A DNA stretch of 64,000 nucleotides, from assembly GCF_031253835.1 (NCBI RefSeq), contig NZ_JAIRVP010000068.1; one strand, written 5' to 3'. Below the pieces are notes generated by a model. That model worked only from the letters and a program-made list of their open reading frames with translations. It did not search any database and had not been told where the DNA came from. This document shows, in pieces, positions 31,051 through 31,173 of this stretch. Within the stretch, counting starts at the first letter, position 1, and each line of letters starts with the position of its first letter. Origin of the DNA: Burkholderia sp. (GTDB lineage: Bacteria; Pseudomonadota; Gammaproteobacteria; Burkholderiales; Burkholderiaceae). The position numbers and the translations under genes are program-made.

Positions 31051-31099
31051 GGGGCGCGCGCCAGGATGCCTCGTCCGGGTTCGAATCCCGGAGCGCCCA
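31051..31099 (+). ncRNA. tRNA minihelix-like element: a 6-bp acceptor-like stem plus a T-arm with a TTCGAAT loop
   Basis: GGGCGC(31052-57) pairs with GCGCCC(31093-98), and the T-arm is CCGGG-TTCGAAT-CCCGG (31075-91). Confidence 0.35.
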
Positions 31100-31100
31100 C

Positions 31101-31173
31101 TGTTCGGAAGCTCATTCAGGTAGAGCAGCCGGCGAAAGCCGGTGTGTGGCGGGTTCGAATCCCGTCCGAACGC
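31101..31173 (+). ncRNA. 73-nt tRNA-like element whose anticodon loop is replaced by a GAAA tetraloop (Y-RNA/YrlA-like tRNA mimic)
   Basis: Acceptor TGTTCGG/CCGAACG (7 bp, with a U-G closing pair). D-arm GCTC-ATTCAGGTA-GAGC. Stem GCCGGC-GAAA-GCCGGT. T-arm GCGGG-TTCGAAT-CCCGT. Confidence 0.5.

Follow-up and report, generated by a model that had tools for sequence, protein, structure and literature searches.

Operons for RNA repair by RtcB are found widely, and antibiotics, DNA damage, and toxins induce them. The present analysis concerns two tandem tRNA-like units, and the putative leader RNA that contains them, upstream of a Band-7/SPFH gene and the RNA ligase gene rtcB in a 64,000-nt stretch of DNA from Burkholderia sp. 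(contig NZ_JAIRVP010000068.1 of assembly GCF_031253835.1), which is hereafter called the window. The closest described system is found in a 2018 preprint, according to which some bacteria have rtcB beside a Band-7 gene and a predicted, strongly tRNA-like RNA named b7a-tRNA (for "band 7-associated tRNA"), and which credits this prediction to Burroughs and Aravind 2016 (bioRxiv 10.1101/312249). The b7a-tRNA cited there was proposed to be a functional analogue of the Y RNA YrlA and not its homologue in architecture (bioRxiv 10.1101/312249). Among other components of such loci, the RtcR of Salmonella is activated by tRNA fragments with cyclic-phosphate ends that bind its CARF domain (PMC7790460), RlaP extends the 3' ends of damaged RNA by one or two nucleotides (PMC12776372), and long tRNA arrays adjoin rtcB and are co-induced with it in cyanobacteria (PMC8421152). 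Going by the preprint, which conveys the 2016 definition at second hand, the units of the window are of the b7a-tRNA kind, and the core finding is a rediscovery of an RNA already predicted in 2016. No later work on the b7a-tRNA was found in the literature (including searches on slipin/SPFH with RtcB and tRNA-like), and Rfam 15 has no model for this family, the general tRNA family being the sole match.

With moderate confidence, we favor the reading that non-decoding tRNA-shaped modules lie upstream of, and in the same orientation as, a Band-7/SPFH gene in RtcB-type RNA-repair loci and act there by the mechanism proposed below. The two modules of the window are as follows.

31051-31099, plus strand: unit 1, a reduced tRNA mimic consisting of an acceptor-like helix, a GG-containing linker, and a T arm (31075-31091), with no D stem and no real anticodon arm.
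31101-31173, plus strand: unit 2, a tRNA mimic of 73 nt that forms a full cloverleaf, its 6-bp anticodon stem ending in a GAAA tetraloop; CCA is not encoded.

Unit 2 was parsed as TGTTCGG AA GCTC ATTCAGGTA GAGC A GCCGGC GAAA GCCGGT GTGTG GCGGG TTCGAAT CCCGT CCGAACG C, comprising a 7-bp acceptor stem with all seven pairs formed (U1-G72 included), a D arm (GCTC/GAGC) with a 9-nt loop containing GG, an anticodon arm, a 5-nt variable loop, a T arm (GCGGG-TTCGAAT-CCCGT), and a discriminator C. The place of a seven-nucleotide anticodon loop is taken by GAAA, a loop of 4 nt on a 6-bp stem. The cloverleaf was both the minimum-energy and the centroid fold (-31.9 kcal/mol, z = -3.1), and an equally good fold was reached by 1 of 200 shuffles. 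In a sensitive scan of 601 nt, the Rfam tRNA model (RF00005), which skipped the shortened anticodon loop, gave unit 2 a score of 35.7 bits (gathering score, 29). The weak matches in that scan (SNORA71, M23, Yfr20, and a plastid untranslated region; E = 0.3 to 8) were noise. In the default gathering scan of the whole window, Rfam reported nothing and missed unit 2, and ARAGORN made zero tRNA calls over the whole window. A preliminary description, made from the letters and their open reading frames, had expected tRNA finders to fail or to flag oddities, as they did here and, by way of odd calls, in relatives; its account of the second element as a 73-nt cloverleaf with a 6-bp, GAAA-capped anticodon arm is supported by the fold and by the tRNA model score given above. 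Moreover, the family covariance model gave unit 2 a score of 69.8 bits, unit 2 being itself in the seed. The 11-mer GGTTCGAATCC, which covers the T loop, occurs in two copies in the 64 kb, 74 nt apart, compared with a shuffle mean of 0.04, and two copies were obtained in 0 of 100 shuffles. The observation of two tandem tRNA-like elements is confirmed, far beyond chance. Neither unit is followed by an encoded CCA, which could be added post-transcriptionally, and the end of unit 2 lies 257 nt from the Band-7 start codon.

Unit 1 consists of a 6-bp acceptor-like helix (GGGCGC at 31052-31057 with GCGCCC at 31093-31098) and a perfectly paired T arm (CCGGG-TTCGAAT-CCCGG); the 17 nucleotides that separate the two are poorly structured. 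The fold energy of unit 1 alone was ordinary (z = -0.8), and its support comes from the comparison of loci: at least six contiguous acceptor pairs were present in 24 of 26 loci, in 20 different sequences, against a mean run of 4.3 in shuffles, a significance that belongs to the 26-locus set taken together, any single locus being weakly significant. This minihelix of acceptor-like stem and T arm is what had been proposed for the first element, and it was upheld. In many Betaproteobacteria, unit 1 takes a reduced form with the acceptor helix, a short GG linker, a small hairpin (often GNRA-capped), and the T arm, and a full cloverleaf takes its place in Pseudomonas and Xanthomonadales. It adjoins unit 2 across a spacer of 1 to 3 nt. 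Among 63 tandem loci, an encoded CCA follows the distal unit, unit 1, in 25 (including L010, L014, L023, L057, L084, and L087) and unit 2 in 5; where CCA is encoded, a cut at the 5' end of unit 2 would leave a CCA-ended minihelix from unit 1.

Relatives of the locus were fetched by means of the Band-7 protein and not by means of the RNA, so that the RNA could be tested without bias. A cluster-representative search returned a diverse family of ~375-amino-acid proteins, 47 of which were aligned, and a one-genome-per-species scan returned 80 loci spanning Burkholderia, Pseudomonas, Dechloromonas, Klebsiella, Xanthomonadales, methanotrophs, Nostoc, and one Chloroflexota genome; matches in PLSDB were Burkholderia secondary chromosomes without usable annotation. 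Because Band-7 protein identity ranges from 42 to 98%, it is unlikely that the alignment is made up of recent horizontal copies. Results revealed that T loops of the form GGTTCGAnTCC occur 180 to 570 nt upstream of Band-7 in nearly all of the 80 loci, mostly as two copies 60 to 80 nt apart, and that an RNA unit stands immediately upstream of, and on the same strand as, the Band-7 gene in the window and in about 70 of the 80 protein-fetched loci. The module is directly upstream of Band-7 even when rtcB precedes the module or when rtcB and rtcR are both absent from the 10-kb locus, and the Band-7/SPFH gene is its consistent partner gene. ARAGORN called tRNA-like genes at 60 of the 80 loci, with scattered "anticodons" (including AAG, AGT, ACC, AAT, ATA, and ACA) and many irregular loops.

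For the analysis of covariation, 83 cloverleaf units, identified with an enumerating parser, were aligned, and the standard cloverleaf pairs were counted on the alignment. The share of paired cells was 93%, versus 66% in shuffles, a percentage that is inflated by the pre-selection of units for paired D, T, and anticodon stems, which leaves unaffected the count of double changes, and changes on both sides were seen in 17 of the 21 pairs. The covariation score was 0.69, compared with 0.16 in shuffles and 0.08 to 0.14 when partners were slid. All pairs covaried in the acceptor (7/7) and anticodon (5/5) stems, as did four of five in the T stem; the D stem is almost invariant, and the T and D loops are nearly so across units. 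In addition, the tertiary 15:48 pair covaries (G:C in 56, T:A in 7, and A:T in 3), which is evidence for a genuine L shape. In the anticodon arm, the loop measures 7 nt in 43 units, 4 nt in 14 (GAAA, UUCG, GCAA, and others), and 3, 5, 6, 8, or 9 nt in the remainder, the GAAA of unit 2 being one among several tetraloop replacements in different lineages. Considering that the stems and the 15:48 pair covary while the anticodon loop varies in both sequence and length, selection acts on the tRNA body and not on decoding. The parts shown to be selected are the acceptor and T helices, the D stem, the elbow formed by GG and the T loop, and the 15:48 pair, and the anticodon loop is not among them. The stems of the preliminary description are therefore preserved by covariation in orthologous and distant loci alike (83 units and 11 leaders), and its view of the units as genuine non-decoding tRNA mimics agrees with the tetraloop in unit 2 and the freely varying loop across the 83 units. 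Its statement that there is no anticodon loop is true at the window locus but does not define the family, in which roughly half of the related units have retained a loop of 7 nt.

The units occupy part of a 610-nt gap (30821-31430) between divergent genes, with rtcR on the minus strand to one side and the Band-7/SPFH gene on the plus strand to the other. The remaining features of the locus are listed below.

29147-30820, minus strand: rtcR, divergent from the operon and encoding a sigma54-dependent activator whose N-terminal domain is RtcR (CARF-type) (Pfam RtcR, 2e-82; Sigma54_activat, 1e-49).
30912-30927, plus strand: sigma54 -24/-12 promoter TGGCACGCTCCTCGCT, the sole pattern match within the window.
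30939-31047, plus strand: predicted 5' leader domain, closed by GCC/GGC and by TGTCC (30945-30949) with GGACA (31034-31038), with hairpins at 30965-30983 and 30989-31023.
31173-31188, plus strand: hairpin H, CTGTCC-GCAA-GGACAG, abutting unit 2, its first C being the discriminator base of unit 2 (fold z = -4.7).
31202-31215, plus strand: motif GCAGTACCCGCCGG at the entry of the 3' domain, common to the loci of Burkholderia, Accumulibacter, Dechloromonas, Azoarcus, and Casimicrobiaceae.
31211-31405, plus strand: predicted 3' leader domain of ~195 nt, a long irregular helix closed by GCCGG (31211-31215) with CCGGC (31401-31405), with a variable apex and, in the consensus fold of 11 leaders, several double changes.
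31431-32570, plus strand: Band-7/SPFH (slipin) gene, the first operon gene (Pfam Band_7, 6e-27).
~32633-33856, plus strand: rtcB RNA ligase gene (Pfam RtcB, 3e-130), the start being approximate and picked to fit the 407-amino-acid annotation of relatives.
~33912-34727, plus strand: rlaP, encoding an RNA-ligase-associated Pol-beta nucleotidyltransferase (Pfam RlaP, 4e-96), the start being approximate.

The order is rtcR, sigma54 promoter, leader, Band-7, rtcB, and rlaP, followed by a DUF1176 gene, which confirms an RtcB-centered neighborhood with rtcR upstream and rtcB and rlaP downstream of the RNA units. Among 16 open reading frames scanned at 26-38 kb, Pfam matches were to AraC-family regulator domains, LysE, RtcR, Band_7, RtcB, RlaP, DUF1176, and a methyltransferase, the others having no match. 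A promoter and terminator scan of 30600-31600 found neither a sigma70 promoter nor an intrinsic terminator, and with the sigma54 match standing as the only one, the gap is read as the transcribed leader of the operon from ~30938; a transcription start near that position would follow from the location of the sigma54 motif. The motif lies 158 to 194 nt upstream of the first T loop in two-unit RtcR-linked loci, 126 to 146 nt in single-T-arm enterobacterial loci, and 215 nt in Gilliamella. Thus, the initial placement of the elements in the leader of an rtcB operon holds in that the operon is of the RtcR/sigma54 type, its transcription being deduced from the motif, and needs amending in that the first gene is Band-7/SPFH and rtcB comes second.

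Beyond the two units, the leader has a conserved architecture of its own. The leaders of 11 Burkholderia and Paraburkholderia genomes could be aligned over their full length of ~490 nt with a mean identity of 80%, and their consensus fold contained 145 pairs, 26 of which showed double changes. Within the 5' domain, one pair of the 30965-30983 stem is A-U in seven of these leaders and G-C in four, and the 30989-31023 stem has double changes as well; the former hairpin had been pointed out beforehand and is indeed present, being kept in relatives by G-C to A-U double changes. Hairpin H, also pointed out beforehand, exists at 31173-31188, one base to the left of the 31174-31189 first assigned to it. 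It shows compensatory changes within Burkholderiaceae and is found directly 3' of the main unit in most lineages; its equivalents in many other lineages (L004-L080) have a 4- to 5-bp stem and a 7-nt loop, C-U-N-N-N-A-C/A, that resembles an anticodon loop, and Burkholderia has GCAA. The 3' domain bears a side hairpin (GCGGGCC-GACA-GGCCCGC at 31217-31234) and stops just before the ribosome-binding site. In a wider, cross-genus alignment of the leader after unit 2, RNAalifold predicted a long-range helix between 5'-proximal and 3'-proximal segments, which is the only element recovered, this alignment of the 3' domain being too gappy for a dependable full structure; in Xanthomonadales, complementary 11-mers show compensatory differences among loci, as judged by eye. 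The tRNA-like units and hairpin H recur across phyla, and the flanking domains were mapped within related groups only. Rfam matched only tRNA above the gathering score in the window leader, leaving the 5' and 3' domains unmatched, and the same was found for the leaders of 13 other loci.

Two other candidates in the leader were rejected. An arginine-rich open reading frame from an ATG at 31196 to 31414 was considered as a coding spacer, and its conservation pattern is that of paired RNA. A pairing of TGTCC/GGACA between the 5' domain and hairpin H was also considered; H compensates internally (CTGCCC/GGGCAG in L088, with the 5' domain unchanged). Separately, the 9-mer ATGAAGGCA flanks the pair of units (31040-31048 and 31196-31204), is poorly conserved in relatives, and may be a coincidence.

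The predicted structure of the Band-7 protein (predicted local distance difference test score, 88) is confident and has a pair of beta-rich modules at the N terminus, together with an SPFH domain and long helices; no transmembrane segment was predicted in the protein, which appears to be soluble. The best structural matches were the ring or cage formers stomatin, HflK/C, and prohibitin, with the major vault protein matching more weakly. On this model, a soluble SPFH oligomer binding the RNA is plausible. Some public gene calls lengthen the Band-7 protein to 413-428 amino acids by using start codons farther upstream (P0001, P0003, and P0008), an extension that would pass through the structured 3' domain (31215-31430). 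The 379-amino-acid form, with a ribosome-binding site at ~31419-31423, is more plausible than these extended calls.

The setting of the module differs among loci. In 14 of the 50 loci without rtcR, it closes an array of up to 24 co-oriented, canonical tRNA genes that encode CCA ends (upstream 1-5 kb in L010, L011, L012, L014, L023, L025, L036, L040, L042, L043, L046, L047, L072, and L074), and tRNA arrays were found at none of the 30 RtcR-linked loci. Inside the array upstream of the module in L046, from a Gammaproteobacteria genome, lies a GOLLD RNA with an embedded tRNA (1333-1820; RF02032, 153.5 bits against a threshold of 150). Two viral contigs (L091 and L092; ~2400-3000) carry a Band-7 homologue with a tRNA-like unit and an H-type hairpin ~460 nt upstream, and L091 also has a 16-gene tRNA array. 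The enterobacterial loci of Lonsdalea, Klebsiella, Superficieibacter, and Providencia (L024, L028, L030, L031, and L035; ~4770-4840) have a single T-arm element and a shorter leader, and all of them except Providencia have rlaP, and no rtcB, beside Band-7 within the stretch fetched.

The likeliest role of the units, as we infer it, is that, once processed, they assist the Band-7/RtcB repair machinery as a cofactor or scaffold in the shape of a tRNA. By analogy with the CARF-bound tRNA fragments of Salmonella, RNA damage would activate RtcR, and the activated RtcR would fire the sigma54 promoter at 30912-30927. The first ~490 nt of the transcript would then form a multidomain leader holding the two tRNA mimics. 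These are probably released as stable small RNAs by tRNA-processing enzymes, the cut at each acceptor helix's 5' end being made by RNase P. The excised RNAs may serve as a tRNA-shaped cofactor or scaffold for a ring- or cage-forming Band-7 protein that would work with RtcB and RlaP on damaged tRNA-like substrates, a role that would parallel the service of Y RNA to Ro60. A more ambitious version, which we put forward tentatively and think less probable than not, is that the b7a-tRNA is one module of an undescribed RNA of ~490 nt (a 5' domain, two tRNA-elbow modules, an anticodon-loop-like hairpin, and a 3' domain of ~195 nt), which, whole or processed, might join RtcB, RlaP, and a soluble SPFH ring or cage in forming a dedicated tRNA-repair particle, and that in genomes lacking RtcR the module caps arrays of spare tRNAs.

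Several points speak against the cofactor role. The outer three acceptor pairs are often open in the family (36-71% paired), unlike those of real tRNAs, which would weaken recognition by RNase P at this site, and at the window locus the CCA position of unit 1 (31099-31101) has degenerated to A-CT, compared with ACCA in four close relatives. The loci of Pseudomonas entomophila, P. soli, and P. machongensis (L013, L033, and L063; ~4540-5000) are without T loops, and plain hairpins replace the tRNA-like units there; the same three loci of the P. putida group have kept the sigma54 promoter and an H-like hairpin, and their leader, similar in length, still shows recognizable sequence motifs of the 3' domain. 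The loss of the tRNA-like modules from these loci indicates that they are dispensable in some lineages. A Band-7 orthologue is present in the rtc locus of P. aeruginosa, and its deletion had no phenotype in the assays used (PMC13086221). The b7a-tRNA itself lacked experimental validation according to the 2018 preprint (bioRxiv 10.1101/312249), and the pre-selection of paired units noted above belongs on the same side of the balance.

The alternative that survives best, and to which we nevertheless give a minor share of the probability, is that the leader is purely cis-acting: the modules and their flanks would act on their own mRNA only, as RNase P or RNase E processing signals that set its 5' end or stability or as a translation platform, with no small RNA acting in trans. 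The conservation of the entire ~490-nt leader between Burkholderia and Paraburkholderia at 80% mean identity, the lack of a terminator between the RNA and Band-7, and the end of the 3' domain just ahead of the ribosome-binding site all fit such a leader, as do the P. putida-group loci that retain it without tRNA modules. Unit 1 is, moreover, weakly similar to mascRNA (23.6 bits against 42.5), which is cut by RNase P from a long transcript. A mere processing signal, however, has no need of a D stem, an elbow GG, or a covarying 15:48 pair; the module also ends constitutive-looking tRNA arrays without RtcR, and the ribosome-binding site is free in the predicted fold.

It is also conceivable, though we rate it as quite unlikely, that the units are decoys, sponges, or sensors for tRNA-targeting toxins, in which case the mimics would absorb or be cut by nucleases that attack the tRNA body, shielding tRNAs or yielding fragments with cyclic phosphates, which would act back on RtcR. 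A competitive-inhibitor role was proposed for YrlA's tRNA-like domain (PMC7790460) and a sponge role for array-encoded tRNAs co-regulated with rtcB (PMC8421152), and the invariant parts of the units are indeed the T loop, the D loop, and the elbow. On the other hand, the anticodon loop, the commonest toxin target, is unconserved and is GAAA here, which excludes anticodon nucleases as the enzymes targeted, and a single copy per transcript would make a weak sponge against the cellular tRNA pool.

Two further explanations are very improbable. The first is that the units are decaying tRNA pseudogenes, remnants of arrays without present function, as could be suggested by the position of the module at the end of a canonical tRNA array in 14 of the 50 RtcR-less loci, by the degenerate unit 1 of the window with its lost CCA, and by the blank ARAGORN result in the window. 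Against decay stand compensatory stem changes across Beta- and Gammaproteobacteria, Cyanobacteria, and a Chloroflexota genome, the near invariance of the T and D loops, and the stable tetraloop replacements of several lineages, which look like selection for a rigid arm. The second, to which the chance we attach is just as slim, is that the RNA is a YrlA-type Y RNA bound by the Ro60 (Rsr) protein. YrlA is likewise encoded in RtcR-controlled rtcB operons, and its model (RF02553) gave a weak alignment over the T arm of unit 1 and the D arm of unit 2 (20.7 bits, E = 0.09), but this score is far under the threshold of 69, and the order of the arms differs, the T arm of YrlA preceding its D arm within the Ro-binding stem. 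In addition, no match to the Ro/TROVE family was found among the 16 candidate open reading frames at 26-38 kb, the rest of the window and the genome not having been scanned for it, and the conserved partner here is Band-7. Of the original characterization as Y-RNA-like tRNA mimics, the non-decoding tRNA mimicry stands, and the YrlA type does not. Finally, that the units are functional decoding tRNAs can be practically dismissed, for although the Rfam tRNA model puts unit 2 above its gathering score and tRNA calls are made for some members of the family, which have tRNA-like loops of 7 nt, the 4-nt loop of unit 2, with no anticodon and no CCA, refutes the idea at the window locus by its very sequence, ARAGORN does not call unit 2, and the anticodons of the family are unconstrained.

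If the cofactor reading is true, a non-decoding tRNA mimic together with a Band-7 protein would give RNA repair a second RNA-protein cofactor, one that does not depend on Ro60 and Y RNA. The window locus offers a clean test system, with a defined sigma54 promoter, two mimics that cannot be mistaken for real tRNAs (one has a tetraloop, and the other lacks a D arm), and genetically tractable Burkholderia and Pseudomonas hosts. Moreover, the alignments could seed an Rfam family, ending the misses of these RNAs and their misannotation as odd tRNAs or as N-terminal extensions of Band-7.

Compared with known systems, the locus shares features with several and coincides fully in context with one. Like the vault particle, in which the major vault protein, with its SPFH-like shoulder domain, is accompanied by vault RNA, it would combine an SPFH-fold, probably ring- or cage-forming protein without a membrane anchor with a small structured RNA, the difference being that Band-7 assembly and RNA binding are putative here. 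Unit 1 resembles mascRNA/menRNA (RF01684) in being a reduced tRNA-like structure in a longer transcript and aligns to that model end to end; that family, however, is eukaryotic, unit 1 scores 23.6 bits against the threshold of 42.5, and the resemblance is one of shared minihelix shape, not of shared ancestry. With the rtcB-linked tRNA arrays, the module shares a place, forming their 3' end in 14 of 50 RtcR-less loci, whereas array tRNAs have canonical anticodons and CCA ends and are mostly aminoacylated, and the window units cannot decode and stand in a window without an array. YrlA is nearer still, as a tRNA mimic that does not decode, has D and T arms as well as the tertiary pairs of tRNA, is co-transcribed in an RtcR/sigma54-controlled rtcB operon (rsr-yrlBA-rtcBA), and has been proposed as an RNA-repair cofactor; it differs in being bound by Ro60 through the stem of its 5' and 3' ends and in carrying its T arm before its D arm, while unit 2 has the normal cloverleaf topology. 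The closest match is the b7a-tRNA as the preprint presents it, a tRNA-resembling non-coding RNA beside a Band-7 gene and neighboring rtcB, and all three of these context features are found in the window. Relative to that description, novelty may lie in the larger leader architecture, in the distal unit with its CCA end, and in the association with tRNA arrays.

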